DNA of 61,905 nucleotides, filler included, from Stramenopiles sp. TOSAG23-6 (lineage: Eukaryota), in NCBI GenBank assembly GCA_900128565.1. It is 24 parts of 24 records of this genome, joined end to end, with 100 filler letters (N's around TTAATTAATTAA, not from the genome) between each part and the next. Parts side by side here need not be neighbours in the genome. Positions count along the whole stretch, not along the records: positions 25,951 to 28,436 come from LT638017.1; 23 more parts are not named here. One strand, 5' to 3'. Shown piece by piece: positions 5,962-54,206 of the stretch (position 1 is the first letter of the stretch; every line of letters begins with the position of its first letter). The notes below the pieces were generated by a model. The model was not told where the DNA came from. It made no database searches and worked only from the letters and a program-made list of their open reading frames with translations. The position numbers and the translations under genes were made by a program.

Positions 5962-5997
<36 letters not shown>

Positions 5998-7929: not shown

Positions 7930-8686
7930 ACAAACCAGATTTTCATGGGTGGATTAAACACAATGGTGATGCATAATACATGTGAAGATTCGTTATTGGC
8001 TGCTCCTTTGATTTTGGATTTGGTCATTTTAACTGAACTTATGGAACGTATTTCTGTTAAAACACAGTCAAATGGTGAATTTGAACGATTTCATCCTGTG
8101 TTGTCTATTTTATCATACCTTCTCAAGGCACCAATGTATGTTTTTTTTTTTTTTTGAAAAATCTTTTTTTTTCATACGAAATTTCGTACCTAACAATTTT
8201 TTTTTTTTTTCAAATATTTTTTTTAGTATAGGGTCGCTGAAAACACACCTGTTGTGAATGCATTATTTGCTCAACGTGAATCGATTGTGAATGTACTACG
8301 AGCATGTTCTGGTTTAAACCCTAATCATCACATGGGTTTGGAACATAAAGTGTACGTTTATATATTATGAATTTTAAATTTATTTATTTTTTTTTTGGTT
8401 TTCATACAAAATTTTGTACCTAACAAAAAAAATTAAATTTTTTTTTTTTTTTATTTTTTTATTTTTGTTTTCTTTCTAAAAAAAATGATACTATAATTAA
8501 TAATTAATAATGAGTAAATAATAACAAATTTTTTAAAATGACTATATTGTTTCATAATACAGGTCATGTGCTGGAACAAACATGTCTATGGCATGTGCTG
8601 CTGCAAAGAGTTCTTCTGTTATTTTCAAAAATAAGGAAAATAATTGTATGGTGAATTCGAGATCTTCTTCTGTTCCTATCTTGTAA
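7930..8686 (+). CDS. INO1: myo-inositol-1-phosphate synthase, 3' part; exons 7930-8135, 8232-8351, 8563-8686
   Basis: [39 protein letters not shown]. Confidence 0.95.
8136..8231 (+). other. Family intron with GT-AG ends
   Basis: GTATGT...ATACGAAATTTCGTACCTAAC...TTAGTATAG|; restores [14 protein letters not shown]. Confidence 0.9.
8352..8562 (+). other. Family intron with GT-AG ends
   Basis: GTACGT...TTGTACCTAAC...AATACAG|; leads in frame to the stop at 8686. Confidence 0.75.
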
Positions 8687-10402: not shown

Positions 10403-11666
10403 GGTAACTGGATCTTCAAAATTATTTATATCTTGGTGGGTAACTGGATCTTCAAAATTATTATTTTCGTCATTACTTCTACATTCTGTCGAAACAAGTG
10501 CTACACTGGACTCCACTGAACTGATTTTTGTACCAGACATTTTTAATGTGTCTTGATCCGTAATATTTAGAGTGTTGGTTTCATAGGAATCATTTTCATT
10601 GAGAACATCAATTTCTTGAAAAGCAACTCGTTGCTCAAGCTCAGATAAAGCAGCATTTGAGTGAGCTAGTTGTTCTACTTGGCGGTTTAATAAAGCTTCC
10701 TTTGCTTTCAACTCGGCCTTCAAACGCGAATTTTCCTTTTCAGTTTCATGTGTAGTGAAAATTATTTTAAACTTGAAATTCGTTAGGTACAAAATTTGGT
10801 ACAAAACAATTTAGGTAAAAAAATTAATTTTGAAAACGTACATGCCTATCTGATTCCAACACCGAAAGAAATTTAGATTCTTTAGTAATATCGGTAAATA
10901 TTTTAGCTGTAGTGTTATTAGATTTACTCGAAACACTTTCAACAATGATGTCACTATTTAAAACAACATTTTGGTCAATTTGTAAAGCCGTTGCCAGATT
11001 AGATAAATTCATATCGCGAAATTGGTCCTGAGCAAGTGCACGATCCTGCTGTGTCACTGCTTCACCATCGAGCATTTCTAGGCGAAAAAGTCTCATTATT
11101 GCAAAGTTTCTCGCTTGCGGCAGTGTAGATATTTGGTTTGATGTCCAGCTAAAAGAGAGTAACTTTGTTAGTGTTGCCAAACTATTAAGGTCATTGAGAC
11201 AGGATAACTTATTATCATCGATACGAAAAACGGTCAAGTTTTTTAATTTTTCAAATGACGATGGTATTCTTTTGATGTAATTTTCTGATAAATCTAGAGC
11301 CTGAAGCAGCTGTAAATGAAAAATTCCAGTAATGGATGAGATTTGGTTCCCTGAAAGGTTCAGACGGAGGAGGTTGTGTAAAGACTCGAAGCCCTCTATA
11401 CATTTAATCATATTACCACCCAAATCTAAATCTTCTAGTGCACTCATGCTTGAAAGACCTTCAATTTTATAAAATTTTCCATGTGAACGGTGTTTGTAAC
11501 GAAGCGACAGTGTCTTTATCTTTTCAACACTGGGTGGACCATCTTTAGCGCCCACATTTTCTTTTTTTGAAGCAGCGGCAAAGTTTGCCAGTATAACGGG
11601 GGTTGTAATATAACGGACACAATCTTTTTTGAAATTTGACTTACACAATGTTGAATCTCTCGTCAT
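10403..11666 (-). CDS. SDS22-like leucine-rich-repeat plus coiled-coil protein (centriolin-like), 3' partial; intron 10748-10841
   Basis: LEDLDLGGNMI, LRLNLSGNQI and LEMLDG LRR cap, followed by coiled coil. Confidence 0.8.
10748..10841 (-). other. Non-canonical intron GT-AT
   Basis: CAT|GTACGT...TTGTACCTAAC...TACACAT|GAA joins two open frames (DRH|ETEK). Confidence 0.8.
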
Positions 11667-20676: not shown

Positions 20677-21167
20677 NNNNNNNNNNNNNNNNNNNNNNNN
20701 NNNNNNNNNNNNNNNNNNNNTTAATTAATTAANNNNNNNNNNNNNNNNNNNNNNNNNNNNNNNNNNNNNNNNNNNNTTAATTATTAATATTCTTCCTCCT
20801 CTCTTCTTTTTCTCTTCTTTATTCTTCCTTCTTATTATATATTTATGTGCAGTTTCATTTGCCTTACTATTGTTATATTATCCACTACTTTAGAGATAAT
20901 CATAGGATATTTTAAAACAGTATATCAATAAATATACTTTTAATTGAAAATGAAAAATGTGAAAAGAAATAAAATATGAATAAACACAGCATACGTATAT
21001 AAAAAAATAGAATGAAGAGAGACGAAGCAAAACGTTTGTTTAATCAACTGCTTTTCTACAGTAATTTCAACAAGAGATATTGGATTTCCAAAAGTTAAGT
21101 GTAAATAAAAACAATGCATAAAAGAAATCAACTCTTTAAAGACATCAAAGCACAATCAAATTAAATC

Positions 21168-22427
21168 ATGGATCTAAGCAACCAAGACGTACGGAATCTT
21201 CTGCCATATTTTATATTAATTGAAATCATTGAAGACAATGAGGAGGAGGTGGAAGATTTGATAATGCTGAATGCCGTGCTCCGCACAAGAACATTTGAGA
21301 GAATGGACTACATACCGGTCACAAGCCCTGTTTATTCTGGTTTCTATAACTCGCCGTTGCACAGAGGGTTAGGAAATTCTGCGTTTTATATGAAATTCTT
21401 GAAAATGACAACAACCACCTTTGCAAAATTGGCGGCAATTTTTTCTCCTATTCATCGGTATGCAAAGATTAATCACCAGGGCAAGTTGGCTTTTTATAAA
21501 AGGGAGCCCCCATCCACAACGTTATGCTCATCTGATTGCTTGGCTTGTTTCTTGTTTTGGTTTTATAATTGCGCAAACCAAGAAACATGCAGCCTATTGT
21601 TTGGGATACACCCCAGAAAAACCAGCCGTATCTTAGTCCTTGCTAGGGCGGTACTTCTTGCCGCACTTCTTGATCACCCTGATTCAAGAGTGACCTTTCC
21701 ATCTTCTGATGAGAGGGCAGTGCTAGCTGATATTGCGTCAGAGAAATACCGTGGCCTCATTGGAGATGAGCAGGTGTGGGGTTTTATTGATGGGTGCAAA
21801 TTAAATGTGGTTAGATCAGGCGACCAAGACATACAAAATGCTCATCACAGTGGCTGGTTAAAGCGACAGGTGGTAAACAATGTCATCCTATTTGATGTCA
21901 CGGGGCGAATTCGTTGGTACAATGTGAATCTTCTTGGGAATACTCATGATTCAGCTGCAACTCTACCCCTCTACTCACATTTAAGAACATGTAACCCAGT
22001 GGAAAAAATATTGGCAGACAAAGCCTTTGCCGACGTTTCAGGAATGCTCCCGCTAAATAAAACGCGCCTTGAAGCAACGGACAATGGCCCTGCATTGGTT
22101 TCGTTGCGACAATCCGTAGAACATGGCATGCGCATTTTCCAAGAGCCAGGAACACTCAAGATGAAGTTGTGTCATGATCCGGTCAAGCGCCAAGAACTGT
22201 TGCAACTTTCTTGCTTGTTGAATAATTTTAAAACAGTTCATGACAAGAACCAAATTTCGTCGACATTTGTTGGCAACATGTCTGATGCACTATTGGAGAT
22301 GGAGTTTGAGCACATTTGCTACGCAAACGAACAGGCACAACAGGAAAATCAGTTACTTGCCCCGTTCCAACAAGGACTGGAAGTGATGTTGCGGAACGAG
22401 ATTACCAAACGTGGGCTAAATTTCTAA
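21168..22427 (+). mobile_element. PIF/Harbinger (IS5/PHIS superfamily, DDE_Tnp_4-like) transposase ORF; element ends not identified
   Basis: GFIDG, SGW, GNTHDS, ILADKAF and LRQSVEHGM catalytic-region motifs; intact, intronless, more GC-rich than its flanks. Confidence 0.85.
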
Positions 22428-23428: not shown

Positions 23429-25760
23429 TTTTTCGCGAATGTAATCCACACGATTCAGGAGAGCAGTCTCAAATTTTACTCGGAGCGAAGATTTATCCCC
23501 ATTTTTTGATTCCAGTGCGTGTTCCATTATGTGGCGTTCCCGAAGTGCTGTGGAGTCTTCCATTGCTTTCATATCAAGGTCTGCTTTTTCTGCAATTGCT
23601 TCAAGTTCCATTTTTGAAATTTCTGATTGACAAGAAAAATAACTCTGCCATTCAAATTTCAAACGTTTCAGTGTATTTTGCTGCACAGTTTGAAGTTCAT
23701 TAGCATTGGCTCGTTTGGCAGCATTTTCTAGGGCTAGCATTTCTTTTGAATAGTTGACGCGAAGTGATTTCATTCCTTTGGCATATTTTTCATCAATGCC
23801 AATCAATGTTCTCAATTTATGCGCCTGCTCAATTTTCAATTGAAATTGAGTGGATATAAGCTTTACTTCTTCATTGCGGCATTCCTCAGTAAACAACGAT
23901 TTTTCCTTGAGTTTTCTCAGATTTTTGTATGCTTCTTGTTCCATTTTTTTTAATTTTGTCATATCTTTTAAAACCATCTCTTTAGACTCGGCTTCAACTC
24001 TCTTTAGCTCTTGCTCATTTGCATCTAACTTTGCCTCTTGTTTTGTAAATGCGTCTTTGATTTCACATAACTTTTCACCAGTAAGTTTCCCTATCCATAA
24101 GTTAGCTCGAGTCCTCATTTCCATTCTGGTTTGCTCTTCACTCTCTTTTTTATAATCTCTCTCATGACTTCGGAGTAATAATTCGTTCTCAAGTAGCATT
24201 TGGTACCAGTCACGCTGCAAAAGCTCATGCTCATAGACTGCGTATTTTTGTACCTCTAAAATATTCCGATGGATTGCTTCTCGTCTTTTTTTTATTTGCA
24301 TTTGAAAGAATTTTACTTTTGGGATGAAATTTGCTGATATTTTAGTACTCGCATCAGGGTTTTTCATTTCTGTTTTCAATCGAATAAGTTCATGGTCATT
24401 CTTAGCTTCTTCCGTAAACAAAGCATGTATTTTGGTATTAAATACAGCAACTTCATTTCGTTCGCGAGAAGTTATTTGTTTTTCACGAATCTTTTGTGCT
24501 TGTGCTGTAGAGTTCTTCTGTTTGAAAAATATATCTCGACGCAGACAATCAATTTTAGAGACTCGGCTACCCCATTTATTATCAACTTCATTTTGTAATG
24601 CTCTCATGTGCAGATTACCAATTCTGATCTCTTCATTTTGCACTTGAAGTTCAATTTCTTCAAGCTGGCGTTTATACTGAGTTTGTAACAATGATTTTTC
24701 TTCAAGTGCTAATTTTGCGATAGTCGAATTAGCACCACGTGCTAATTTCACCATAGTCGACTTTGGACTACCTTTCAAATCGCCGCTTTTATTTGTTGCA
24801 CTATTAAACTGTTCTACTTCTTCATCTATTTTGCTATGCGACTCTGTCAATTCTTTCTCGATAGTTGCGCAAATACCTTTATGATATTCAAAATTAGTTT
24901 TTGCAAGACTATCTAGCTTTGTTATCCATAATTCGTTGATGTTGCGTCTTAATTGTTGACCATATTTTTTACACTCTCGCTGTTTTGTTTCTAATTTAAT
25001 GTACAACGCCCAAAGATCATTTTCCCATTTCAATTGTGTCCGTTTTTTATCATCTTGAGCAGATCTACGGTCATCTAATAGTTTTCTTTCATATTGGTCT
25101 CTTTTTTCTATGATACTGTGACGCTCTTTTTCTAAAGTTAACCGTCGAGCTTCTGATTTTTGTATTGTATCAAAATGTCCAATATTTATATGTTCGATTT
25201 CTGGATTCGTAAATATACTTTGCATCCTAGAATCATGTGACATTTTCTTTTTCGAAACATTTTCTTTCTTTTCCGATACGAGCTCGTTGGCTTCTTTGGT
25301 ATCAAAGACACCAGCATCTGAAATTGCTTGATCGATAAGCTGCAGAGTATGTTTAAACTTCATACCTCCTTCTAAACCTTTATTAATGAGCTGATGTTCT
25401 AGCGACTCTAGTGCTGCAATTTTTTGATCATACTCAAGTGTTATGCGCTGTAGAGCTTTGGAAAAATCATCTTGAGAATCGCTACTTAGCTTATCAACTT
25501 TTGATGCAAAACCTTTCATGAAAACGACTTCCAAGTCCTTCATGTAATTGGTCCGTGTATTTTGGAAAAATATTTCATAAAAAAAATGTTAGGTACGAAA
25601 TTTCATACCAAAAAAATTAAAAAAAAAAAATTAGAAATTCATATAAAACATACGTGTCCTATATTCTTGTTCCAAAACATGCATTTCATGTTCTTCTAAT
25701 TTTCGTTCCCATCGATCGTGGAGCATCATTTTTTGTTGTTCTGCGCGCAGCTTTTGATCC
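23429..25760 (-). CDS. Long coiled-coil protein, internal exons 25760-25654 and 25554-23429
   Basis: E/K/Q-rich heptad composition; frame kept across family introns. Confidence 0.8.
25555..25653 (-). other. Non-canonical intron GT-AC
   Basis: ACAC|GTATGT...TTCGTACCTAAC...CCAAAATACAC|GG; phase 1 join gives CGG. Confidence 0.8.
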
Positions 25761-25850
25761 ATGTATTTTGGAAAAATATTTCAAAAAAAAACGTTAGGTA
25801 CAAAATTTCGTACGAAAATAAATTCGAAATTGAAAAAAAATAAAACATAC
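25761..25850 (-). other. Non-canonical intron GT-AT
   Basis: Full family consensus; starts exactly at the contig edge. Confidence 0.75.
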
Positions 25851-26879: not shown

Positions 26880-28112
26880 TTAATGATGATTGGCAACTGG
26901 TGGGCCAATATTTTCAAAACATTTAATTTCACCTTTAGATGACGATACAACGATAATTTGTCTCGTTACATTATCCAAGTTAAAAGAGTTGCTACAAATA
27001 GAACATTTTTTACGAATATCATTTGGCAATTCATTTGCTGATGACTTCCATGCATCACGAAGAAATGACATTTCAAGATAGCTTGGGTGCCCAGGAGGAC
27101 GTACACGGGATATAGCAGTAGGAGGCATAAAAATAGCAACAGTTGCTGCAACTTTTGACGTCTCTTCTTCTTTTTCTTTTTCAAAATCTTCTTCGGATAC
27201 GGCAGTACTAATACCTAATACAGTAGTATCAGATAGCACTTCATTTTCATCAAATGCAGAAAATGTTTCATAACTATAATTTTTTCCTCGATATTCACGT
27301 TTTAATAACGAATATTTGGAATATGAACTTTCATTTTTAGTTCTCCATAAATAAATATTTGAGGTTTGTGATCCACAAATAATATGTTCATTACTTTCAT
27401 CTAATGATGCAGCAATCATACCACGTTCTGTATTCAACAATCCTTTATATTTCCACATTGTTGAAAAGTCATCCATTCGAATATATCGAAGTCGACTATC
27501 ATTTGTTGTAACAAGCAGTTCTGTTCCAGCAGATGAAAATTGTAACCCAGTGACTTTTTTACNTTTTTTGTNTCGTCCACTTCGATTACGACATTCAATT
27601 TGTGTATAATATCGCATACGTTTCTCCATATAAAAAAAACANTGTCCATCGTACAAACCTGCTACAACCATATCACCTTTCACATTATATGCAGCAGCTG
27701 TGATTGGACAAGGAGCTAACGCCCATTTGACAACACGACCATCAGGGATGTACCATACTCTTAATTTTTTATCAAAACAACCTGTTAAACAATAACCATC
27801 TTTTTTTGGATGAAATGCAACAGAGGTTACAACACTAGAATGAAGAAATTTACTTAAACATTCAGGACGTGTTGTATGCCATAAACGAACAGTTTTGTCC
27901 ATTGATGCACTCAGTAAAAAATTACCTTTAGACCAAGCTAGATCAATTACATGCTTTGTATGTCCTTTAAAAACACGAAATGGCTTCCCATTCAAAACAG
28001 CATCAGCTTTTAAACGATGTAATTTTAATTCTTCTCTTTCTCGATCTTCTTCAACAGAAACAAGTGAATGTCTTTTTTCTAATGATGCAGAATTCATACG
28101 ACGATGACGGGC
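26880..28112 (-). CDS. WDR44: WDR44-like WD40 protein, last exon
   Basis: GHTKHVIDLAWSKGNFLLSASMDKTVRLWH, VTSVAFHP, LLVTTNDSRLR; family acceptor ATACAT| at 28113. Confidence 0.85.
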   Translation of the reverse strand, partial: ARHRRMNSASLEKRHSLVSVEEDREREELKLHRLKADAVLNGKPFRVFKGHTKHVIDLAWSKGNFLLSASMDKTVRLWHTTRPECLSKFLHSSVVTSVAFHPKKDGYCLTGCFDKKLRVWYIPDGRVVKWALAPCPITAAAYNVKGDMVVAGLYDGXCFFYMEKRMRYYTQIECRNRSGRXKKXKKVTGLQFSSAGTELLVTTNDSRLRYIRMDDFSTMWKYKGLLNTERGMIAASLDESNEHIICGSQTSNIYLWRTKNESSYSKYSLLKREYRGKNYSYETFSAFDENEVLSDTTVLGISTAVSEEDFEKEKEEETSKVAATVAIFMPPTAISRVRPPGHPSYLEMSFLRDAWKSSANELPNDIRKKCSICSNSFNLDNVTRQIIVVSSSKGEIKCFENIGPPVANHH

Positions 28113-28380
28113 ATGTATTTTGAAAAAATATTTCGGAAAAAAAATCGTTAGGTACGAAATTTCGTACGAAAAAAAAACAATTTGAAAAAAAATTATTGTT
28201 TTGAAAAAATATAATGTTAGATATTTGTTGGATATGAAATTTTTCTACATGTCTGTTCCAAGAAAATGAACTATATACTTGTTGAAGAATACATTTGAAG
28301 AATTTCTTATAAAAAAATAAATTCGAAATTCACAATTAAAAAAAAAAATCATTAGGTACAAAATTTTAAAAATTTTGTCC

Positions 28381-28612: not shown

Positions 28613-30936
28613 GCTGTTGATTCTTCTTCGAAACAACTTTGTGAAAATACAAAAAATACTTTTCCAATCCCTAAAAACTCCAACTCTAATCCTTCAACTA
28701 GTTCTTCGAAAACAACAGAGAAAGTATCATCATCAAAAATATCATCTGAAGGGAAACTACATGTATGTTTTATTTTTTTTTCAATTTTTTCAATTTCGAA
28801 TTTATTTTTTTATAAAAATTTTGTACCTAACAAATATTTTTTTTAAATAATTTTCCAAAATACATGTAGCAAATGGTGTTCATCAAAGTATTTTTCCTTT
28901 ACCACAAAATTCAACAGAAATATCTAAAACGTCATGTATAGTTGCATCACCTATTAAACCTATTGAAGCTCTCTCTAAAGATGACAACCATGAGGGAATG
29001 AGTAAAGATGACAACCATGAGGAAACGAGTAAAGATGACAACCATGAGGAAATGAGTACTATGAATAATGAAAAATTTCAAGTGAACACTGAAAATCGTA
29101 CTGAGAATCGGACTGAAAGGGCAGGTACATTTGATGATGAAATTAGGTCACTTCAAATTGCACCAAATGGATCTACTTTTACACCCCAACGGAAATTAAA
29201 GAGATCAACTCCGCCTGGAGATGCGGTCTTTGGAAATTTGCTCCTGAATACACCAAATGCAATTATGATGATGGATCCTTTCTTTACTAAAAGTGTTTGT
29301 AGTAGTATTTCACATGGTACTTCAACAGGTCGACCTCCACGGCCCGAAGCTTCAATACAAAAGTATAAAGATTCTGTCAATGGGAAATATATTCATAATA
29401 GTGTGACCAAATTAGAATCATCGGCACAAAAAAACGATGTAAAAGAAAAAGAGAACCAAAACAGCCATCAGTCACAAAGATGTAAAAATACTATTAATGT
29501 AAAACGCCGAGATCGTACTGACTCAGGACCAGGCAGGATGATACGTGTCGTTTCACGTTCTCCAATATCGGATGGGGGTAACACTGTGAGTGTAACCAAT
29601 GTATGTTTTATTTTTTTTCAAATTCGATGTTTTTTTTTATAGTAAATTTTGTACCTAACGTTTTTTTTTCAAATATTTTTCCAAAATACATCCGGCACAA
29701 AATGAAATTGAGTCCAGTAAAGTTTCATCTGTCGTACTTTTTCATTATGAATTTCATTTTGTTTTTGTTTTTGTTTTTGTTACGAAAATGTATACTTAAC
29801 GAGTTTTTTTAATATATTTTTCACAATACATGCGGCTTCCATCGCAAGCACTGAAAGTCTTCCTGTAGGTTCATTGGGAGCATCTGCACGTGATGGTTTG
29901 ATAATTTCGTCTTCTTTACTTAAATCGCGATCAAATGCGTCGTTGAAGAATGGCGACAACTCTTGTGTAGTTTCTCTCGTTCAGTGTATGGAAAAGAATA
30001 CAATATCAGCCATGTCTTCGAAAATATCTAAAACTACAACAAAATCCAATGGAAATGATATAGATAATAATAACAATAATATTAATGATAACGAAGTTGA
30101 AAAATCTAATTTTCTACAAGAAACAATGAATCCACCAGCAGTTTCTTCATCGCCAAAGTCTATTACTTCGAGTCACGAATTTGAAACAAATCCTCTACGG
30201 TTGAATCGGTCTTTATCGTTTAGCGATGCTGTTTCAAATCGGAGTCCACTAAGACGAACAAATAGACATTTGTCATTTAGTGAAGCGGCAGAGGTTGGTA
30301 ATAGTCCTCCAGTTGAAAGTTATGCTCGTCGTGCGGCGGAATTATGCACTTTAGATGACGTCACTGGTCTTTCCCACTCATTTAGTGAAGATCATACAGT
30401 AAGAAATAATGGTCGAGATAAAGAGCAATTAGTTCAATTGGGAGAAGTGATGAAAAGATTTCAACGTGAACAAGATTATGAATATGAGGAAACTAAAAAT
30501 AGTACAAGTAAATCAATCGATACAATTCCAAAAAATGAAAATAAAGAAGTCTTTAATGCCGATATTGAATGTAAATATAAAGATGGAATTATTTGTGATG
30601 ATAAAAGTAGTCTTGTTGAAAAACATATGAAACGTAATGATCTATACGATGAAAACAAGATGAATGCACGATCAGAAAATACAAATGTTTCGGATGACAG
30701 TGATCAAGATATTAATGATCCGTATGGTACGTTTTCATTATGAATTTCAAATTTATTTTTTTTTTGGTTTTCATACGAAATTTTATACCTAACAAATTTC
30801 GAATTTAATTTTTTTTACAATACATGTGGTGTTCGTCGAATAAGATGTGAGTTAGATGCATCTTTTGCATGCGCGGCATTGGAAAGCTCAACACCTCATG
30901 AAAAGTTGTCCAGACGTCCTGATCCCTCAAAATCAT
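28613..30936 (+). CDS. S/N/T-rich low-complexity protein; exons 28613-28762, 28866-29600, 29692-29733, 29832-30726, 30826-30936
   Basis: Removing four GT-AT introns gives one uninterrupted frame. Confidence 0.75.
28763..28865 (+). other. Non-canonical intron GT-AT
   Basis: TACAT|GTATGT...AAAATACAT|GTA; TACATGTA is present at both junctions. Confidence 0.8.
29601..29691 (+). other. Non-canonical intron GT-AT
   Basis: Family consensus, phase 0. Confidence 0.8.
29734..29831 (+). other. Non-canonical intron GT-AT
   Basis: GTACTT...TATACTTAAC...CAATACAT|, phase 0. Confidence 0.7.
30727..30825 (+). other. Non-canonical intron GT-AT
   Basis: GTACGT...TATACCTAAC...CAATACAT|, phase 1. Confidence 0.7.
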
Positions 30937-31220: not shown

Positions 31221-31627
31221 CAAAAGAACAACAAAAAATGATTATTGTTGATGTTCTACAAGCTGAATTAAATAATTTGCGGAATTTACAAACCACTCGA
31301 TGTCAATTAGAAAAAGAAAATATAACAATATTAGAAAAAAAAACTCAATTGGATAGAAATTTAGTCGTTGCCAAGGCAAAAATTGATGTACGTTTTTTTT
31401 TTTTAGTATGAATTTTTAGTATTAGGGTTAGGGTTTCAATTTTTTTTTTTTTTTTAAAAAGATTCTAAAATCTCTTTTTAAATGAAATATTATTATAAAA
31501 GTATGCAGAAAGAAAATCTTTAGCTGAATTAAATCAAAAAATTGAGAGTTTGACTGAGCTGAGTGGAAATAAAGGAAGAAAAATGACAAAAAAAATTGAT
31601 TTTAGTTTGAGAAAAAAAAGTATATAA
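31221..31627 (+). CDS. C-terminal exons of a coiled-coil protein (intron from 31388, acceptor near 31501-31504 ambiguous)
   Basis: Open frames KEQQKMII..AKAKID and AERKSLAELNQK..SI*. Confidence 0.5.
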
Positions 31628-32124: not shown

Positions 32125-33050
32125 ATGGTTATATCACAGAGTATTCTTGTTGTACTCTTTCTATTAACCCTAACCCTATTAGTCAGTGACAATGCAACGG
32201 CTAATGACGTCACTGAACCTGGTAGTTTGTTACCGTCTAATCTTCCCTCCGCACCAGCGAGTAATCATCCTCTATCAAACACATGTGGACATGGTATGCA
32301 ATGGAATGATTGTGGTTCTCCTTGTATTACTACATGTCATTATAAACCTGACTATAACGCTGATTCACAATGTGCAGCAACGGAATGCATCCCACGTTGT
32401 GAATGTCCAGTCGATCCAAATGCTTTACGAGAAGGTGACCGATTTGTCTGGGATAGAGTGCTTGGGTGTATGCCATGTACTGATTGTCCACCACGATTGC
32501 CATTAGTATCTGTAAAAAATAAAATGGTTGGTATAGATCCTATGAGCGATCCGAGAGACTGGGATATTAGTACAGTTAAATCTTGTATGTTTTTTCTTTT
32601 CAATTTCGAATTTATTTTTTTTTTTTGTAGGGAATTTTGTACCTAACAAATTTTACCAAAAAAAAAAAATTTAATATTTTCTCACAATATTTGGTTAAGT
32701 CAAGTTGTGAAAACAAATGGCGAAAAAGCTAGTGCTTATGCAAATTCTATTTTAGGTGTGTATACTGGTAAAGTATTGTATAAATTTACACGAACTGAAA
32801 TGTACGTTACACCTAACCCTAACCCTAATTCAAAACATTCAAAAAATTGTGAAATTAAAAATATTATAAAAAAAAAAAATTCAAAATATCAAACCTAACA
32901 AAAAATGTTTTTTTTATTATTTTTACAAAATACATGAATGTTTTACTTGAACGAGAAGATCCATTAGAAGGACAACACATTTTTGATATATTACATGATG
33001 TAATCTGTCCTTTTCACTGCTCTTGTGATTATTATGTTGAAACATTTTAA
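32125..33050 (+). CDS. Secreted protein with TIL (trypsin-inhibitor-like Cys-rich) domain and SAM-like C-terminus; exons 32125-32584, 32693-32801, 32936-33050
   Basis: Signal peptide; WNDCGSPCITTC..C..CIPRCECP..GC...DC; spliced PRDWDISTVKSWL..YTGKVL. Confidence 0.7.
32585..32692 (+). other. Non-canonical intron GT-TT
   Basis: TCTT|GTATGT...TTGTACCTAAC...CACAATATTT|GG; restores W in W..STV..WL. Confidence 0.7.
32802..32935 (+). other. Non-canonical intron GT-AT
   Basis: AT|GTACGT...ACCTAAC...AAAATACAT|G. Confidence 0.75.
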
Positions 33051-33874: not shown

Positions 33875-34424
33875 GTTTAAAAAAGAAACAACGTCAAGTT
33901 TTCCAGGAAAATATGGAATTAAAAGATGAACAGGAGCGACTTGAAGGGGAAGTGAAACGCTTGAAAAAAAAACTGTTTAACCCTAACCCTAATGACATAT
34001 GTTTTATTTTTTTTTTCACAAAAAATCGAATGTTTTTTTTTCGTACGAAATTTTGTACCTAACAAAAAAAATTTTAAAGAAAATTTTGAAATATTTTTCC
34101 AAAATACACGTTGCTACAAAAAAAGGCGTAGAAGGTATAAAATGGTTATCAAAATGTGCAAATGCAGGTAATAGTGAAGCTCAATACGAATTGGGTGATC
34201 GTTTTTTTGAAGGTGATGGTATTGAGGAAGATAAACAAGAAGCTATCAAATGGTATCGTCAATCGGCAACTGGAGGAAATCGAGAAGCACAATTCTGGCT
34301 AGGTAAATGTTATTGTTTAGGTGATGGTGTTGATGAAGACGAACAAGAAGCTATTAAGTGGTTGACTGAAGCTGCTAATGCTGGCCATCCGGACGCACAA
34401 GAAATGCTTGATGAAGAATTTTAA
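33875..34424 (+). CDS. Sel1-repeat protein, last exons 33875-33996 and 34110-34424
   Basis: AQYELGDRFFEGDGIEEDKQEAIKWYRQSA repeats. Confidence 0.85.
33997..34109 (+). other. Family intron with AT-AC termini
   Basis: GAC|ATATGTTTTATTTT...GTACGAAATTTTGTACCTAAC...CCAAAATACAC|GTT, phase 0 in frame. Confidence 0.7.
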
Positions 34425-34851: not shown

Positions 34852-36081
34852 TTAATCAGACTCATCATCATCATCATCAGACTCATCATCATTTTCTTGA
34901 ATGAATGTAATCCATTCCAATGTTTGAACACGTGCTTCCACACGGCCTTTTAAGGTTTCACTTTTATCATCAGACCAATCAACAAATGCCTCTTCAGATA
35001 TAATATCATTATCATACAATGTCATAAAAATCACTTCAATCAATCCTTTCGGAAACTTAATTTCATAACAAAATGATTGAACTGTAAATACACCATTTTT
35101 CATTGTCTTTTTACAGGATTTTCCAAGAGTACTATATAAAACACGATAAAAGTCTCCACCTTCAGCAATTTCTGAAATAACATTTTCATCATCTTCATTC
35201 TTAGATACCATTGATGCAAAATTACCTTTCGATTTCTTTAGTAAATGTAATAAAACAGCAGTTAAAACATCAACACCACAACTGCCTTTTAATTTTTTAC
35301 GAAGTTCCTTATCAACGATTCCTGAAGAGATCAAATCGAAGATTTCAGAGTTGACTGGAATGTTTTCTATCGCATCTGTCACAATTTTCGGAAGTGGAAT
35401 AAAACTGTCCAATAATTCTTTTGCTTTGGTATTTAGTGTAGAACAATCAACATACGATTTAGAAATTATTTCCTTCAAAACATCTTGAAATATTTCTGGT
35501 GCCTGTTTTTTGAAAAATATTGTAAAAAACATGTTGTACAGATGAGTTTTTTTTTTTTGAGATTTTTTTTTTTTGAGATTTTTTTTTTTTTGTAGTGGGG
35601 AAAAAAATGTAAACATAAAAAAAATAAATGTTTCAGGCGGAAACAATCAGTCATCCGTAGGTTATCTAGGCCTACATTCAGAGGGCTTGGAATAGAAAGT
35701 TTGTCCTCATTAACATTCAAAAATTCAAAAATTCAGATGTAAAAAAAAATCTGAAAAAAAATTGAAAAAAAAATTGAAAAAAAAAATGAAAAAAAAATTT
35801 GAAAATAAAAAATCTAAACAATAAAAATTTGATAATAAAAAACGTACCTTAGGGGCATCCATTGCTAAGTCTTCCATTTGATCAGCTACTTGATTAATAA
35901 CAGCAATTAAACATTCTGAATCAATCGTTTTTTCACGTAATTTTGGAAATAGTTTTTTTAAAGCCTCTCGTTCACTACTTTTAAATCCTTCGACCACTGA
36001 CAATAAAATTGTAACAAGAATTGTTTGATAATAAGGTCTACATTCAAGCTCTTCCATACAAAGAATGAATTCTGTCACATC
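34852..36081 (-). CDS. eIF4G-like C-terminus (MA3 + W2 domains); exons 36081-35848 and 35502-34852
   Basis: DLAMDAPK|APEIF (MA3); LYDNDIISEEAFVDW...WI.FI.E + acidic tail (W2). Confidence 0.8.
35503..35847 (-). other. Canonical GT-AG intron lacking the family hairpin/branch cassette; hosts a snoRNA
   Basis: AAG|GTACGT...AAACAG|GCA, phase 0. Confidence 0.85.
35627..35717 (-). ncRNA. Intronic box C/D snoRNA candidate
   Basis: Terminal stem AATGTT/AACATT, box C ATGAGGA, D' CTGA, C'-like GGATGA, box D CTGA; complex sequence embedded in a poly-T intron. Confidence 0.7.
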
Positions 36082-36350
36082 ATGTATTTTGTAAAAATAT
36101 TTCAAAATTTTTTTTTTTTTTTTTGGTAAAAAAAAATTTTTAGGTAAAAAATTTCGTACGAAAAAAAAAAAAAAAAAAAAAANNNNNNNNNNNNNNNNNN
36201 NNNNNNNNNNNNNNNNNNNNNNNNNNTTAATTAATTAANNNNNNNNNNNNNNNNNNNNNNNNNNNNNNNNNNNNNNNNNNNNACAGATATTGTTGTTTGT
36301 TTGTACTACTTGTTGAAGTTTGAAATTTTGAAATTTTTGAAATTAAAAAA

Positions 36351-37202
36351 TTATGAATTTTTATTTCTTATATTTTTCATTGCATTTAAATGAGCTTCAC
36401 CACCCCACAATGTTTCAAATTCTCGAGCTTCAGTATCAAAAGTATTACAATTATTATAATAACTTGCAATAATTCTTTTATTTGCACGAACTGCTGTTGG
36501 GCTCATTCTTTCTTTCTGAAAATTTTCCTTTAAAAATTGTACGCTTGCAGTAATGGTCTGGCCTGGTACACAAATTTGATCACATATTCCTACAGTAACG
36601 GCTCTTTCAGGGTGTATTACTTCTGCGCCAGCAAGTATTTTACAAGCATCATTCCTAGATACGATGCTACAAAGTCGAGAAGCACCACCCCAACCTGGTG
36701 TTAGTCCCATTGTAGAATGGACCATTTGAAAAATAGTATCCGATGAGAATAATCTAAAATCACAAGACAATGCTAGTTCTGTGCCACCTCCTATAACGGA
36801 TCCTTCAACGGCAGCTATAGTAATTAAGTCTAACCCACGCCAACATTCAAGATAATGTGTCATAAATTGTCGCATTTCTTTACCAAAGTCCTCAGGTATA
36901 GATGTGTCTTTAACTACACTGAGATCTGCACCTGAACAAAAATGTGTTCCTGACCCTGCTAAAATTACACCTAGGCAATCGTTATTATTGCTACTAATGT
37001 CTTCTAATTTTTCTATTGCTGAAGCAAGTTCCGTCATCATTTTACCACTGATTGCATTTCTTCGGCTTTCATTATGTAATGTGACTGTATATATACCTGG
37101 TAAAGCTTCATTCAACGCAACATGACCTCCGCCTAAACGACGTAGTTTTGGGAAGGTTCGTGCAGCTGTTTTACGACAAAGGTATGATATCGGTATCGAC
37201 AT
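36351..37202 (-). CDS. ECHDC1: Enoyl-CoA hydratase/crotonase family, ECHDC1 (ethylmalonyl-CoA decarboxylase)-like
   Basis: RRNAISGKMM, FCSGADL, IGGGTELALSCDFR, MGLTPGWGGASRL, LWGGEAH. Confidence 0.85.
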   Translation of the reverse strand: MSIPISYLCRKTAARTFPKLRRLGGGHVALNEALPGIYTVTLHNESRRNAISGKMMTELASAIEKLEDISSNNNDCLGVILAGSGTHFCSGADLSVVKDTSIPEDFGKEMRQFMTHYLECWRGLDLITIAAVEGSVIGGGTELALSCDFRLFSSDTIFQMVHSTMGLTPGWGGASRLCSIVSRNDACKILAGAEVIHPERAVTVGICDQICVPGQTITASVQFLKENFQKERMSPTAVRANKRIIASYYNNCNTFDTEAREFETLWGGEAHLNAMKNIRNKNS

Positions 37203-37413
37203 CTAAACAACAAAAATGATCATGGTTGCTTAAGGAACATAAAGAATGAAGAACAAGTTTTTTATTTTTTTAACTTTGTACGCGAAAATGACCAGTTCGA
37301 GTTGCCATCAAAAACATCAAAAACATCAAAAACATCAAATCTCGTTTTTTTCCCAAGTCAAGTTCTCTTTTTTGTTCAAAACAATAATAAATACTACGTA
37401 CTTCTTCAAAAAG

Positions 37414-38761
37414 ATGGTAAGAGATAAATGTTTTGGTCTCTCCTGTGATACTGTATTTGCGTACAATACATCCAAAACCGTTGTAATAAGAGACCGCCGT
37501 GTTGGATGTCTCAGAATTTTTTTCCTGGCAGTAATTTTTATTTACATTGTCGTGTTTAAGATTCTGTATCAAAACGGTGGCTACACTTATGAACCACCAG
37601 TAGGCACAATACGCTTTGAGCTTCGTGCACCAGTTGTTGATAATTGTAATCCATACAAAGCAAACTGTGATAATAATTTTCTTCCTTTGACTAAATTACC
37701 ATACTGTTTGCAAAATCAAGAAAAGCGTCCAATTCCTGGGCAAAACGCTACGTTAGACAATTTCAACTGTGCCTATCTGGATTCGTTAGAAGCTGGTAAA
37801 GATGATTCTTTCTCCGTATATTTGACCACTTTCTTGAAAAGGTATACCCAAACACGAATGTGTAGCAATATTATATTGCAATCTAAAGTACCATCGAATA
37901 CAACTTCTTGTACACAAATGTTTAAAACGACAGCAACAGACCAGTATTTTGTTACACAACCTGAAAAATTTACGTTATTATTAGATCATAGTGCAACTGC
38001 ACCATTATTAGGAATAACTAGTATTGGACGTACCACAAATGGACGTCTAAAAATAAAAGAAGGAAATGATCAATTGTGTCTACATCCACCAAAAGGTCAT
38101 GTCGCATATAAATATGCTCTTGGGGAAGAAAATAGTCCTACAAAAGCACCATGTATCTTTTTATTGTAATCCGTAATACTTTTTTTTTTTTTGGTTTTCA
38201 TACGAAATTTTGTACCTAAAGAAAAAAAATTAATTTTTTTTTTTTTTGAACTTTTATATTTTTTACAATGTATGTTATATTGAGCCAGTACATCCGCCGT
38301 ATCCAAATAACCATTTAGATGTATTTTCAATTGAAACATTACTCTCAGCTGCAGGGCTTGGCTTGGATACTGTGGCATATCAAACAGGGAACAAACCTGA
38401 TAGTGTACGAAAACGTGGAGGTATAGTTATGTACATTTTCATTATGAATATTGTACCAATTTTGAAATTATTTTTTTTTTTTTTTTTNTAAAAAAATTTT
38501 NTACCTAAANAAAAANAAAAAAAAAAAAAAAAATTACAGTGTCAATATACGATATTCATTATTTAAATAATCATTAATCATCATTTAAATCATCATTTAA
38601 ATGATTATTAAATAATTTCAAATTTTTGTAAAATATATATATATATATCCACAATACATTGTGTCCATATCATATGAAAATACACTACCATGGATGCAAA
38701 CAACAACGCCATTTTATACTTATGAATTATCTACTTTACCACATACTGAATTTAAAACACA
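37414..38761 (+). CDS. P2X purinoreceptor-like cation channel, 3' partial; exons 37414-38152, 38274-38430, 38660-end
   Basis: FAYNTSK (YxTxK) + VIRDRRVG + TM1; FTLLLDHS; spliced R.RGGIVIVSISYEN. Confidence 0.85.
38153..38273 (+). other. Non-canonical intron GT-AT
   Basis: AT|GTATCT...TTGTACCTAAA...CAATGTAT|GT; KAPCYIEP. Confidence 0.75.
38431..38659 (+). other. Non-canonical intron GT-AT
   Basis: AT|GTACAT...CCACAATACAT|T; restores GGIVIVSISYEN. Confidence 0.75.
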
Positions 38762-39992: not shown

Positions 39993-41340
39993 ATGGTAAG
40001 AGATAAATGTTTTGGTCTCTCCTGTGATACTGTATTTGCGTACAATACATCCAAAACCGTTGTAATAAGAGACCGCCGTGTTGGATGTCTCAGAATTTTT
40101 TTCCTGGCAGTAATTTTTATTTACATTGTCGTGTTTAAGATTCTGTATCAAAACGGTGGCTACACTTATGAACCACCAGTAGGCACAATACGCTTTGAGC
40201 TTCGTGCACCAGTTGTTGATAATTGTAATCCATACAAAGCAAACTGTGATAATAATTTTCTTCCTTTGACTAAATTACCATACTGTTTGCAAAATCAAGA
40301 AAAGCGTCCAATTCCTGGGCAAAACGCTACGTTAGACAATTTCAACTGTGCCTATCTGGATTCGTTAGAAGCTGGTAAAGATGATTCTTTCTCCGTATAT
40401 TTGACCACTTTCTTGAAAAGGTATACCCAAACACGAATGTGTAGCAATATTATATTGCAATCTAAAGTACCATCGAATACAACTTCTTGTACACAAATGT
40501 TTAAAACGACAGCAACAGACCAGTATTTTGTTACACAACCTGAAAAATTTACGTTATTATTAGATCATAGTGCAACTGCACCATTATTAGGAATAACTAG
40601 TATTGGACGTACCACAAATGGACGTCTAAAAATAAAAGAAGGAAATGATCAATTGTGTCTACATCCACCAAAAGGTCATGTCGCATATAAATATGCTCTT
40701 GGGGAAGAAAATAGTCCTACAAAAGCACCATGTATCTTTTTATTGTAATCCGTAATACTTTTTTTTTTTTTGGTTTTCATACGAAATTTTGTACCTAAAG
40801 AAAAAAAATTAATTTTTTTTTTTTTTGAACTTTTATATTTTTTACAATGTATGTTATATTGAGCCAGTACATCCGCCGTATCCAAATAACCATTTAGATG
40901 TATTTTCAATTGAAACATTACTCTCAGCTGCAGGGCTTGGCTTGGATACTGTGGCATATCAAACAGGGAACAAACCTGATAGTGTACGAAAACGTGGAGG
41001 TATAGTTATGTACATTTTCATTATGAATATTGTACCAATTTTGAAATTATTTTTTTTTTTTTTTTTNTAAAAAAATTTTNTACCTAAANAAAAANAAAAA
41101 AAAAAAAAAAAATTACAGTGTCAATATACGATATTCATTATTTAAATAATCATTAATCATCATTTAAATCATCATTTAAATGATTATTAAATAATTTCAA
41201 ATTTTTGTAAAATATATATATATATATCCACAATACATTGTGTCCATATCATATGAAAATACACTACCATGGATGCAAACAACAACGCCATTTTATACTT
41301 ATGAATTATCTACTTTACCACATACTGAATTTAAAACACA
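39993..41340 (+). CDS. P2X receptor-like (duplicate copy)
   Basis: Identical to 37414-38761. Confidence 0.85.
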
Positions 41341-41526: not shown

Positions 41527-42625
41527 TAAACGTTGCAAAGCAATCTGCAATACAGCATTCAATGAAGAATCTAAGAAACATGGATTCAGAATACCCAGAA
41601 AAAGACGCTTGCTACTCACAGGATGAAGAAATGGAATGCACAAATAATATAAAAATTCAATTAATTGAAGCTGGAATTGATCTCCACAAGTTTGACCCAA
41701 CCGTAACAAAACCTATTATTCCAAAAAATGACTCTGAAATACTTGTTGGATTTGTTGGAAGACTTGTAGAACAAAAACGACCGTTAGAATTTGTTAAAAT
41801 GGCTTCTGTAATACAGCAACGTTTGAATACTGTTTTCAATATTAATAGTAGTAAAGAATATACTTTAAAACAAATTTGCCATAGTATAGAAAATGTTCAA
41901 ACTAAAGATAATGAAAAAATATCCCAGAATTACCCCACAAAGAGTATATCCAAATATATTCGATTTATTATGGTTGGTTCAGGAGGTGCGTCAACTTCCA
42001 TTGTAAACTTGGCCAAATCGTTGGGAGTGAATATTGAATTTTTTGATTCAACAGAACATGTACCACAAGTACTATCATCTTTAGATATGTGCGTTTTCAT
42101 CATTTTAATTTCAAAATTTGAATTATAATTTTTTTTTCGGACCTAATTCAAATCCGATATTTTTTTATATCTAACAAATTTCAAACTTTTAAATATATGT
42201 TTTCGCTTTACATTTTTATCCATCTATCAGTTTGGGACACTGCGGCGTATGTACGTTTCATTTTTTTTCAATTTCTAATTTATTTTTCGTACGGAATTTT
42301 GTACCTAACGTTTTTTTTGAAATATTTTTCCAAACTACATGCTGTGCGCGAGGCAATGGCAATGAAACTTCCTGTAGTTGCTCTTAGTACAAATTTAGGA
42401 GTTTCTGATTATGTTGAACACGAAAAATCTGGATTACTAGTAAATTCTCTCAATGAAGAAGAAGTTGCTTCAGCTGTGCTAAAATTAGTTTGTAATAAAA
42501 AAAAACGAGAAGAATTTGGATATAACGGAAGATTAGTCATTGAGAACATTGCGCCAATTGATAGATTTGTAGATGAACACGCCGCTTTATACGTCAAATT
42601 GTGGCGAAATCGTACACGTACGTAA
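41527..42625 (+). CDS. GT-B (GT4-like) glycosyltransferase, 3' part; exons 41527-42088, 42214-42250, 42341-42625
   Basis: GFVGRLVEQK, spliced DIFIHLSVWDTAAYAVREAMAMKLPVVA, SGLLV. Confidence 0.88.
42089..42213 (+). other. Non-canonical intron GT-AT
   Basis: AT|GTGCGT...ATCTAAC...TTTACAT|T; restores LDIFIHLS. Confidence 0.75.
42251..42340 (+). other. Non-canonical intron GT-AT
   Basis: TAT|GTACGT...GTACGGAATTTTGTACCTAAC...CAAACTACAT|GCT; retention would insert 30 aa into the GT4 signature. Confidence 0.8.
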
Positions 42626-46595: not shown

Positions 46596-48915
46596 AAATA
46601 TACAATAAAAATGATACGAATGTAATAAAACTAAATTGTGGTGAAATTCGGCCTAGTACCGCATTAATACATATAAACGCAAACACAGCGAGAACGAGTT
46701 GTGTAGCCTGTTTTTTGGAAAAATATTTTCTACGTTTGAAATTTGTTAGGTACAAAATTTCGTATGAAAAAAATAAATGACATCTATGATGAAAACGTAC
46801 ATGTAATATTTTACACACCGATCCAGCAACAGCAAATGTTGATAGAAAATGAAAGAAAATATTGTTTCCTACAACAATTCTTCCAAATTCATCTTCTACA
46901 CATTGATCAGCAAATAGCCCGTAACTTTGAAGACTGCTCCAAAGTATGATTACATCTAATAGTAAGACCATTATTAAATCCATTTGAAATAATTTCAAGG
47001 TCAAAGTCATCACTCGGCGTTCTATTTTTTGTCTATTCAAGAAAAATTCACGTCTTTTGATTTCTAATGCCTTTTTCGCTTGTTCTTCTCTCTGTTGAGA
47101 TAGAATTGCAGCATGTCGCCGATCTTCAGATTCTATAAATTCTCTATGACGTAATTGTTTCTTCCTACATTCTTTTTCCCATGCTCTAGCTTTTTTCTCC
47201 GCATGTAATCTTTTTGCTTCAGCATCTGCAAACCATTTTTGTCTATCATCTTTTCTTAATTCACTTGCACGACGATTTATCTCACGCTGGGTTCTTTCCC
47301 ACTGAACGCGATCGGTTCGTTGCGTCACTAAAAGTTTCTTCATCTCTATATCATGAGCTAGCATTCGATCAAATACTACTTTACGTGCTTCAGCTTCGTC
47401 AACACCTAATTGGGCAGCACGGGCGACCATTACCTCCACATCAGTTGGAGTCGCATTTGTGGAAATAATAGGCTTACTATTAAGATTGTCCTTACCCGTA
47501 TGAATAATTTCCGTTTGTGGATTTTCACTGTCATAATCACCTAATAACAAAGGTCGTTTTTTTTCACCATTGCAAATATTTTCTAAAGGGTTGACATTAT
47601 GTAACTTCGTTTGAGCATCAATCAATTGTTTTTCTTCAGTTTTTACTGTGTGTCGATCTAAACATTCCTGTAACGATAGTAATGTAGACATTCCTTTTTT
47701 AACTGAGGGTAAATGAGCAAATCCAGATTCATATGCAGCTTCAACAGCAACTTTTAGAACCGGTGCAATTAATACAAATTGTGCAATATCAGAAGTATCT
47801 GGAATATCATTATCTAATTCTTCATTTGTATACTGTATCTTGGATAAAGCAGCCTCACAGTCTTTAGATACGATATCACCAACTCGTAATTGACTACAAA
47901 TTTTCGTCGTTGTTTCATCAATTTCTTCGTGAAATTTCAGCATAAATTCTAATATTGCATTTGCTGTATGTGTATTATGTTCTATATATGCCGCACGGTG
48001 AAGTGCAAGTCTAAGTGAATTTCGTAAATGACTCAACTTTGTGAATTCATTTTTGATACTTTCTGATATTTTCAATAGATTTGAAGTGAGATAAACTTTG
48101 CGGCCAACAACACTTCCTTTTCTATATGATTTCAATGAATATGAAAAATCAGATAAAGCTTCTGTAAGATATCCAACAGTGTCAATAAGTTCTGTAAATG
48201 TTTTAGCACCCAAAGGAAGACATATATGCTCAGTAGTATACGTCGTATTGGGCTCTTCTCTTGACTCTTTTGACTCCTTTGACTCATTTACATCTGAGCA
48301 GGATGAATGGGACTTTACATGACATACGGAATCAGTCATCTTCCGAATTTTCATTATATCCAACACTACAGCTTCTAACTTCTTCACAATCATTGGTGAT
48401 TCTACAGTTGTCGACGAAGAGGAAACTGCGATATTCGATTGACTTGTATCTAGAGATAACGTAGAACTGGCATCCAAAGTCAGCCCAAAACTAGAACAGA
48501 CAGTCTGTTCCGTCAGATTAGGATCAGATAATATTTGACAAATTTGGCGAATAGTTACCTTCAAGTCACCGAGTACACTGCATCGATGTAATTCGGCAGC
48601 GTTCATAGAGGTTGTTGCGAGTCCAGTTTTAACCATCCAAACAAAAGTAAGCACTAAACTACAAAACATACCTACTATAACAACGTACTGATTCCACGTT
48701 TCGAAAGATATGGCTTTCATTTTTGATGGAATAGACTCTATGGTGGATAGCAGATTAGAAGCTTTCTGTCGTAACGGGACGGGAGCTCGCTCGTGGGCGT
48801 CCTCAGAGAAAATATCGAAAAAGTCGTCTTCGAGCTCAAAAACATCAAAATCCTGAACGGCGTAAACGTGACTAAACACCACCATAAAAATTAGCAAATG
48901 TGAAAAGAAACTCAT
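46596..48915 (-). CDS. Signal-peptide, membrane and coiled-coil hypothetical protein, 3' partial; intron 46708-46800
   Basis: Long ORF, hydrophobic N-terminus, TM segments. Confidence 0.75.
46708..46800 (-). other. Family intron with GT-AG ends (93 nt, in frame)
   Basis: CAT|GTACGT...ATACGAAATTTTGTACCTAAC...CCAAAAAACAG|GCT. Confidence 0.8.
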
Positions 48916-53932: not shown

Positions 53933-53974
53933 GTATGTTTTTATCATTCCAATTTCAAATTTATCATTTCAATT

Positions 53975-54206
53975 TCAAATTTATTGTTCAAATTTATTGT
54001 TCAAATTTATTGTTCAAATTTATTGTTCAAATTTATTGTTCAAATTTATTGTTCAAATTTATTGTTCAAATTTATTGTTCAAATTTATTGTTCAAATTTA
54101 TTGTTCAAATTTATTGTTCAAATTTATTGTTCAAATTTATTGTTCAAATTTATTGTTCAAATTTATTGTTCAAATTTATTGTTCAAATTTATTGTTCAAA
54201 TTTATT
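53975..54206. repeat. 13-bp intronic minisatellite (CAAATTTATTGTT)n
   Basis: Perfect tandem array running to the contig end. Confidence 0.95.

Follow-up and report, generated by a model that had tools for sequence, protein, structure and literature searches.

The window examined here, a 61,905-base stretch of DNA from Stramenopiles sp. TOSAG23-6, carries many copies of one short intron, in which a palindrome runs into a CTAAC branch-type box. Sequence comparison indicates that this is probably an introner-like, transposon-derived intron family removed at a 3' site without AG, and that its palindrome is an inherited module, not a selected hairpin. One short-intron family would have spread through the genes of an AT-rich eukaryote as an introner does. 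Each copy would supply a GTAYGT 5' splice site, T-runs, a CTAAC box adjoining the palindrome and an ...ACA(T) 3' motif. The segment removed would begin at GT and stop at a set position in the 3' motif, and its last two bases would repeat the exon bases before GT. The spliceosome of the organism would accept a 3' site lacking AG, with the branch formed at CUAAC. The 3' arm of the palindrome (TTTTGTAC), fused to the branch box, would be retained, while the 5' arm would decay, chiefly at CpG sites.

The intron family and its borders

An original prediction for positions 28145–28172 described a perfect palindrome running into CTAAC on the minus strand. This strand reads TTTTCGTACGAAATTTCGTACCTAACGA, and the palindrome and the box were located there as described. 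The features of this site are the following:

28152–28167, minus strand: perfect 16-bp palindrome GTACGAAATTTCGTAC; folded alone, it gives a 6-bp stem with a 4-nucleotide (nt) loop at -6.5 kcal/mol
28147–28151, minus strand: branch-type box CTAAC, adjoining the 3' side of the palindrome; the plus strand reads GTTAG
28113–28181, minus strand: 3' part of the intron, homologous to the family over profile positions 42 to 118, with the 3' end ...AAAATACAT at 28113
26883–28112, minus strand: open reading frame (ORF) of a WD40-repeat protein, the exon downstream of the intron end at 28113 (WD40 at 68 bits versus a cut-off of 27)

The profile placed no 5' border for the intron copy 28113–28181. The first ATG of the WD40-repeat ORF lies at 28097–28095, 15 nt past the end of this intron, which therefore is a 5'-leader intron, outside the reach of the reading-frame test described below. 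A second, degenerate family copy is located just upstream, near 28355.

The window consists of 24 size-ordered contigs of 2,465–2,503 bases joined by linkers of the form N44-TTAATTAATTAA-N44, and 59,486 non-N bases were searched. The contig at 38862–41340 is a duplicate of that at 36283–38761, which leaves 23 unique contigs. With up to three mismatches, GTACGAAATTTCGTAC was found 37 times in the whole window versus 0.33 expected; the highest count in 100 shuffles was three. Only two copies are perfect (28152 and 60850). All but one of the 37 matches fall within copies of a single repeated intron family, and the flanks of the CTAAC-oriented matches align over their entire length. A profile built from 19 copies gave 53 hits, 52 of them unique (about 0.9 per kb), spread over 17 of the 23 unique contigs; at this density, the whole genome would be expected to contain thousands. 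Many contigs start or stop within a family copy, as is expected where a repeat breaks an assembly. The host genes include those for HMG-CoA lyase, inositol-3-phosphate synthase, a glycosyltransferase, and PPR and LRR proteins. A crude test based on the length of flanking ORFs scored 29 copies as sense, 5 as antisense and 18 as unclear.

The 22 unique full-length copies are 89–121 nt long and share one layout. The 5' half comprises GTAYGTTTTAT, a T-run, a CAATTTCGAAT-like piece, another T-run, the palindrome and CTAAC. A variable A/T spacer follows, then a T-run, GAAATATTTTTCCAAAATACAT and the exon, the intron ending in ...ACAT|exon; the part after the T-run carries AAATATTT. The motif lies in introns, on the sense strand and directly 5' of a branch-type box, across the family copies, in agreement with the original prediction. 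The proposed branch motif TACCTAAC does replace TACTAAC, with 42 occurrences in the window (30 on the plus and 12 on the minus strand) versus 2. In an alignment of 49 unique cores (A1), the box is CTAAC in 40 and CTAAA or CTAAG in 7, and T-runs follow. From the second A of CTAAC to the intron 3' end we measured 25–54 nt (median 35, n = 33); the original prediction gave about 30–50 nt. The second short palindrome noted before the acceptor, AAATATTT, lies within the last 41 nt of the intron in 22 of 34 copies.

The 5' border is GT in 29 of 30 copies, with GTATGT in 14 and GTACGT in 11 (GTAYGT, 25/30). The last three intron bases in 34 copies are CAT (25), TAT (4), CAC (2), TTT, CAG and CTG (one each). 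Only one of these 34 profile-mapped ends is AG; two further copies have AG ends with frame or homology support, and three more seem, by eye, to have them. GT with an extended 5' consensus, a CURAY-type box and a downstream pyrimidine tract are present as in U2-type introns, but the 3' AG is mostly absent. Assignment to the minor (U12-type) introns, which tolerate non-AG 3' ends, would account for these ends, and the ACCTAAC box loosely resembles the U12 branch consensus. We regard this assignment as highly improbable, given that the 5' end GTAYGT is not of the U12 type and that the branch A lies 25–54 nt from the 3' end, far beyond the typically short U12 distance.

Reading frames were compared for 17 of the 22 unique full-length introns, namely those with one clearly longest open frame on each side. 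Removal of GT...YAY| leaves 15 of the 17 in frame (binomial p = 4.5e-6 versus one in three). A rule that takes the first AG downstream preserves the frame in just 5 of 16 in-frame rows.

For the HMG-CoA lyase gene, the GT-AT model aligns to relative P0001 without gaps across the junction and through to the stop codon, with a score of 1068 versus 925 for the first AG and 937 for the unspliced sequence. The junction can be shifted among TG..TA, GT..AT, TA..TG, AT..GT, TG..TA and GT..AT, and, among these shifts, no GT...AG pair is able to yield the gapless product. For inositol-3-phosphate synthase, chain 9m53_A served as the reference: its residues 476 and 478 match the two exon ends, and only the one split codon separates them. 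On this mapping, the family copy ending in TATAG is used as an AG intron. The use of this copy as AG suggests that the cut is made at a fixed place in the 3' motif, the last base being mostly T, or C or G. Taken together, reading frames and homology, rather than RNA, imply removal at GT...AT and not at GT...AG, and in this respect the non-AG intron end of the original prediction is upheld.

The family introns and one diverged relative are listed below.

55907–56004, plus strand: HMG-CoA lyase gene, GT...AT, junction fixed by homology
8136–8231, plus strand: inositol-3-phosphate synthase gene, ends ...TATAG (GT...AG), placed by 9m53_A residue mapping
60437–60525, plus strand: PPR gene, GT...CAT, in frame (profile and frame)
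60815–60915, plus strand: PPR gene, frame kept only with an end at the AG 2 nt past CAT
61083–61175, plus strand: PPR gene, GT...CAT, in frame (profile and frame)
61312–61417, plus strand: PPR gene, GT...CAT; automatic test ambiguous (N at 61303), in frame by hand
61548–61653, plus strand: PPR gene, GT...CAT, in frame; skips a TAG located inside the intron, 13 nt past the branch A
42251–42340, plus strand: glycosyltransferase gene, GT...CAT; homology did not fix the junction to the base
42089–42203, plus strand: diverged relative of the family, GTGCGT...ATATAT, without palindrome, in frame by hand
10748–10841, minus strand: LRR gene, CAT|GT...CAT|, in frame
25555–25653, minus strand: CAC|GT...CAC|, in frame, the repeat following the exon
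25761–25850, minus strand: family intron at a contig end (profile)
28763–28865, plus strand: family intron, 5' arm destroyed (TATAAAAATTTTGTAC)
29601–29691, plus strand: family intron, 5' arm ATAGTAAA
29734–29831, plus strand: family intron with an ACTTAAC box, out of frame under the profile boundaries
30727–30825, plus strand: family intron of the ATAC subfamily, in frame
32585–32692, plus strand: CTT|GT...TTT|, in frame
33997–34109, plus strand: GAC|AT...CAC|, in frame
38153–38273, plus strand: family intron, in frame; present again at 40732–40852 in the duplicate contig
46708–46800, minus strand: family intron ending in CAG, in frame
52015–52105, plus strand: family intron that keeps the frame with its 5' arm destroyed (2 of 6 pairs)
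52205–52304, plus strand: family intron, in frame
52974–53073, plus strand: family intron, in frame with just 1 of 6 stem pairs
53715–53818, plus strand: family intron, in frame with just 2 of 6 stem pairs
5864–6035, minus strand: intron with three tandem modules of palindrome plus branch box (profile)

In 14 of 21 introns, the exon before GT and the intron itself end in the same two bases (permutation p = 0.0014). Both AC-ending introns follow AC exons, and the single TT-ending intron follows TT. The diverged relative at 42089–42203 also has AT before GT and AT as its end. We infer from these sequences that the 2-base repeat is a 2-bp target-site duplication; with such a repeat, taking out the element together with one repeat copy gives back the coding sequence as it was before insertion. 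The following exon begins with G in 21 of 34 cases, so the restored junction is often CAT|G.

A border of this kind also fits removal of the segments from DNA. The eliminated sequences of ciliates likewise leave with one copy of a short repeat, which matches the loss of the element plus one repeat copy, and no spliced RNA was seen in four seawater runs. This explanation, like its variant in which the segments are never removed and the genes are pseudogenes, is nevertheless very hard to credit. Long ORFs are open under the standard code, the copies carry the spliceosomal signals GTAYGT, CTAAC and T-runs, and the mostly sense orientation (29 versus 5) is not required by DNA excision. The pseudogene variant is also opposed by the 15 of 17 framed introns that keep the frame in many genes.

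Simple rules for 3'-site choice were also tried. Taking the first CAT, CAY, YAY or YAG after the branch fitted only 21, 19, 0 and 0 of 33 introns, respectively, and these rules were rejected. Some copies (61605–61653, 2609–2658 and 61368–61417) contain TTTTTAG 13 nt past the branch A. The frame-supported CAT end of the 61540 copy lies 32 nt beyond TTTTTAG, and the near-branch AG seems to be passed over.

Among database proteins, P0002 is closest to the HMG-CoA lyase ORF. It represents the same gene, and its source name points to a marine stramenopile group, the probable lineage of the organism. P0002 matches the GT-AT model (window 55032–56400) exactly except that 30 and 34 residues are missing in two in-frame deletions. 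The 34-residue gap covers the family intron and takes out conserved residues; the 30-residue one falls within coding sequence that no intron interrupts. Gene models that assume the GT-AG rule, such as P0002, appear to be damaged. In view of the deletion over the family intron, gene sets predicted under this rule for such genomes may be short or broken.

The palindrome and its decay

The original prediction offered two readings of the palindrome: an RNA structure that positions the branch site, or a DNA palindrome bound by a transposase. It also held that common variants keep pairing through G-U. This is true of the commonest sense-strand form, GTACGAAATTTTGTAC, which has one G-U (9 of 49 copies), but not of the ATAC... 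variant: 15 of 49 copies begin with A, and their closing pair is lost to an A-C mismatch rather than kept as a G-U. All six stem pairs are retained in 13 of the 49 copies, and 20 copies have four or fewer. Four introns with no more than four pairs (30721, 52008, 52965 and 53709) remain in frame.

Covariance analysis of alignment A1, the check proposed for the RNA reading, revealed no stem pair changed on both sides among the 49 cores. Paired cells amount to 73.4% (shuffles, 74.1 ± 0.8%), with a covariation score of 0.083 (shuffles, 0.093). Six whole or near-whole introns gave fold z-scores of -1.6 to +0.4, and several of their minimum-energy folds lack the hairpin. The variants also appear to mark subfamilies. 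Copies with the ATAC arm tend to have ...ACAAT... at the 3' end, and those with the GTAC arm ...CCAAA... (5/1 versus 1/9, Fisher p = 0.0076). Since arm type is tied to a 3'-end type more than 40 nt away, the variants speak for subfamilies and not for independent tuning of the stem.

Decay of the palindrome is one-sided. Differences from the consensus number 87 in the 5' arm and 24 in the 3' arm, the conservation of the latter being inflated at the last two palindrome columns, which the anchor used to collect the cores fixed as AC. The six CpG columns among 25 hold 127 of 173 changes, and 80 of them count as CpG transitions when compared with the perfect palindrome, the assumed ancestral state. 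The changes of CpG type include C-to-T, giving the 'G-U' form, G-to-A, giving ATAC... and ...ACAAAA..., and GTACGT/GTATGT at the 5' site. This concentration of variation hints at CpG hypermutability, and so possibly at cytosine methylation, in the organism.

What remains conserved in the module is (T)TTTGTAC-CTAAC. Compared with the pairing in yeast, only CUAAC fits the usual branch-pairing pattern, and the two preceding bases do not. Retention of the 3' arm could reflect an extended contact with a protein or a small nuclear RNA (snRNA), or the mere avoidance of changes adjacent to the branch.

If the palindrome formed an RNA hairpin to present the branch box and aid the choice of a 3' site without AG, CUAAC would stay single-stranded at the stem foot. 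The perfect form does fold alone, at the energy given above (z -2.2), and one full intron shows the hairpin in its centroid fold. Owing to one G-U, pairing of the commonest form is confined to the sense strand, and six of six pairs are found on the sense strand in 13 of 49 copies versus 7 of 49 on the antisense strand. We consider a role of this kind unlikely. Compensatory pairs are absent and pairing does not exceed that in shuffles; 20 of the 49 copies have lost at least two of the six pairs, four of them in introns that stay in frame; whole-intron z-scores reach no lower than -1.6, and several folds lack the hairpin; the one G-U derives from a C-to-T transition at a CpG; and the diverged relative without a palindrome (42089–42203) keeps AT|GT...AT|. 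The one-sided decay of the arms likewise disagrees with an RNA structure that positions the branch site.

The palindrome might instead be a DNA signal, that is, a binding or hairpin site for the copying enzyme that is needed for spreading only and decays after insertion. The transposon-like subfamilies and the 2-bp repeat at the borders agree with such a role, as does the drop in stem integrity as the 3' block diverges (rho -0.38, p = 0.036, n = 31). We give this explanation little credence. The TATAAAAATTTTGTAC variant, in which the 5' arm is gone, is present in four copies in four contigs, and the three copies with a mapped 3' block have 0–1 mismatch to the consensus there. The occurrence of such near-consensus copies in different contigs suggests that the variant spread without the palindrome. 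Decay on one side only (87 versus 24 changes) is also at odds with a palindromic signal. The only transposase ORF in the window, at 21165–22424 on the plus strand (420 residues, DDE_Tnp_4 domain, PIF/Harbinger-type), shares no termini with the family: its contig lacks both a family intron and inverted repeats similar to the family ends. These findings leave the transposase-binding palindrome of the original prediction without support.

The interpretation of the palindrome as an inherited module carries a caution of wider use: copying plus CpG decay can yield a palindrome with 'G-U-preserving' variants, no selected structure being needed.

Evidence to the contrary and related systems

Besides the fixed anchor columns and the assumed ancestral state of the core alignment, several points weigh against an introner-like family with a decaying palindrome. 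Two of the 17 framed introns do not fit GT...YAY|: that at 60815 fits an AG 2 nt further on, and that at 29734 is unexplained. Another 5 of the 22 unique full-length introns are without clear frames. The repeat of the last three bases (5 of 21, p = 0.45) is not significant. The terminal inverted repeat is weak, with 4 nt (GTAT.../...ATAC) or, counted by eye with flanks, 7 nt (CATGTAT/ATACATG), and we infer the mobility of the family from sequence. Five copies were scored as antisense. By inspection, those at 5933 and 6000 seem to represent low-complexity read-through beside a minus-strand gene, those at 9157 and 9215 adjoin a convergent gene, and that at 49394 is a partial hit. The trend of stem integrity with divergence fits neutral decay, and the hairpin may still have a role in young copies.

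RNA data belong here as well. Five seawater metatranscriptome runs contain 5–9% of the words of 52000–61905, and four seawater RNA runs (X1, X2, X3 and X5) were compared with 54307–56774. The exons at 54406–54580, 55068–55284, 56022–56208, 56454–56614 and 56678–56774 were thinly covered, with 0–1 base differences. At this thin exon coverage, no RNA contig from the four runs joins exons across 55907–56004. Also, intron-family sequence is abundant in the RNA libraries, in hundreds of contigs with differing flanks: the summed contig depth over the intron-family parts 54307–54389 and 55884–56049 reaches about 17,800 (X3) versus about 3–4 in exons. This depth could come from unspliced RNA, stable excised introns or DNA carry-over.

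A metagenome scan with a 16-base query (3' arm plus box) yielded at least 118 loci, and among the matches listed none was an intron copy. At least 35 weak profile hits (E 7e-6 to 1e-3) resulted; the six loci inspected match just around the 16-mer, and all hits were read as chance.

In the literature searched, we found no description of this family or of GT...AT introns in stramenopiles. The main text of PMC5778133, on single-cell genomes of marine stramenopiles, uses the word 'intron' twice, never about splice sites, and the consulted portion of PMC9860276 contains neither 'stramenopile' nor 'MAST'.

Four known systems come close, as far as the cited excerpts describe them. The introners of Micromonas pusilla and of a stramenopile resemble miniature inverted-repeat transposable elements (MITEs) and are GT-AG introns with 3-nt duplications and clear terminal inverted repeats (excerpts of PMC11282704). 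Shared with them are the many near-identical short introns in unrelated genes, the short direct repeat at the border, and an element that gives one splice site, the other border lying at the duplicated target, so that removal restores the ORF. The family described here differs in its mostly AT 3' end, 2-nt repeat, weak terminal inverted repeat and internal palindrome fused to the branch box.

Introns of the larvacean Fritillaria often have YAY before the 5' site and almost always at the end, with AT and AC as the commonest 3' ends (PMC13326754, in part). They are thought to be MITE-derived, with a 3' site from a duplicated exon triplet (passages in PMC13326754; PMC11282704). In F. borealis, the 5' ends are mainly AG, and intron sequences and termini are very diverse (PMC13326754, same part). 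For U2AF1, loss, duplication or zinc-finger changes are reported in Fritillaria (PMC13326754). Judging by these passages, the present family is similar in that YAY closes the intron in 31 of 34 copies and the preceding exon in 11 of 29 (CAT 7, TAT 3, CAC 1). In contrast to the non-GT AG/AC and AG/AT classes of Fritillaria, 29 of 30 copies start with GT, the branch box is strong and one family dominates, in a non-animal.

The introners of Amoebophrya have non-canonical borders, direct repeats over exon/intron borders and palindromic motifs predicted as hairpins (PMC7789003, in the sections consulted). According to the same sections, inverted repeats of 8–20 nt join the intron ends, the direct repeats are 3–5 nt long, and the termini are highly variable (PMC7789003). 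Repeated introns, non-canonical borders, direct repeats at the border and a palindromic motif are also found here, but on this partial comparison our palindrome is a local feature inside the intron, which has uniform GT...AY termini. Finally, the nonconventional introns of euglenids lack a pyrimidine tract and rely on end-to-end pairing (PMC11282704, in part). As portrayed there, they resemble the family in non-GT-AG borders and junction repeats like target-site duplications, and are unlike it in that the latter has the spliceosomal signals GTAYGT, CTAAC and long T-runs.

The family shares with the introner, Fritillaria and Amoebophrya systems a common logic: the duplicated target provides the border at which an invading element is taken out. 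If this is true, the organism would be the third kind, after larvacean tunicates and a parasitic dinoflagellate, with transposon-like introns removed at non-AG 3' sites. Its unusual uniformity (GT...AT, one family, strong branch box) makes the rule of 3'-site choice easier to study.

A more far-reaching proposal is that the spliceosome of this organism, a free-living marine stramenopile on that view, cuts most introns after AT, at a site set by an intron-borne module instead of AG, with an origin independent of Fritillaria and Amoebophrya. The module would be a hairpin-flanked GUACCUAAC branch box plus an A-rich ...ACAAUACAU end, and the branch-binding factors (U2, SF1 and U2AF) would be altered to match. 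We hold this proposal to be rather improbable.

Other features of the window

The GC content is 20–44%. The standard code gives long ORFs with eukaryotic domains, including WD40, PPR, DENN, P2X, the proteasome RPN2 C-terminal domain and an HMGL-like domain. An Rfam scan of the window returned no matches, i.e. no snRNA within it.

The family members detectable with the profile do not account for all introns here. A probable longer intron of more than 300 nt at 35500–35846 (minus strand), in a gene with a W2 (eIF-type) domain, begins with GTACGTTTTTTATT and is rich in T/A-runs, without the palindrome and without TACCTAAC. A permissive pattern search for further introns gave 89 hits, mainly in coding sequence, and was uninformative; therefore, we make no claim that all introns are family members.

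The three tandem modules of the intron at 5864–6035 (minus strand) have the form GTAGTAAATTTCGTAC-CTAAC/A and are spaced at 65–71 nt by long A-runs. This intron seems to end in ...GTATAG.

Short telomere-like runs (TTAGGG or CCCTAA, 2–3 units) occur in both orientations within or adjoining several introns. They were noted near 5427–5544, 7075–7090, 31420–31440, 32808–32826, 34010–34025 and 56185–56234. The telomere-like sequence CCCTAACCC includes the box CCTAAC.

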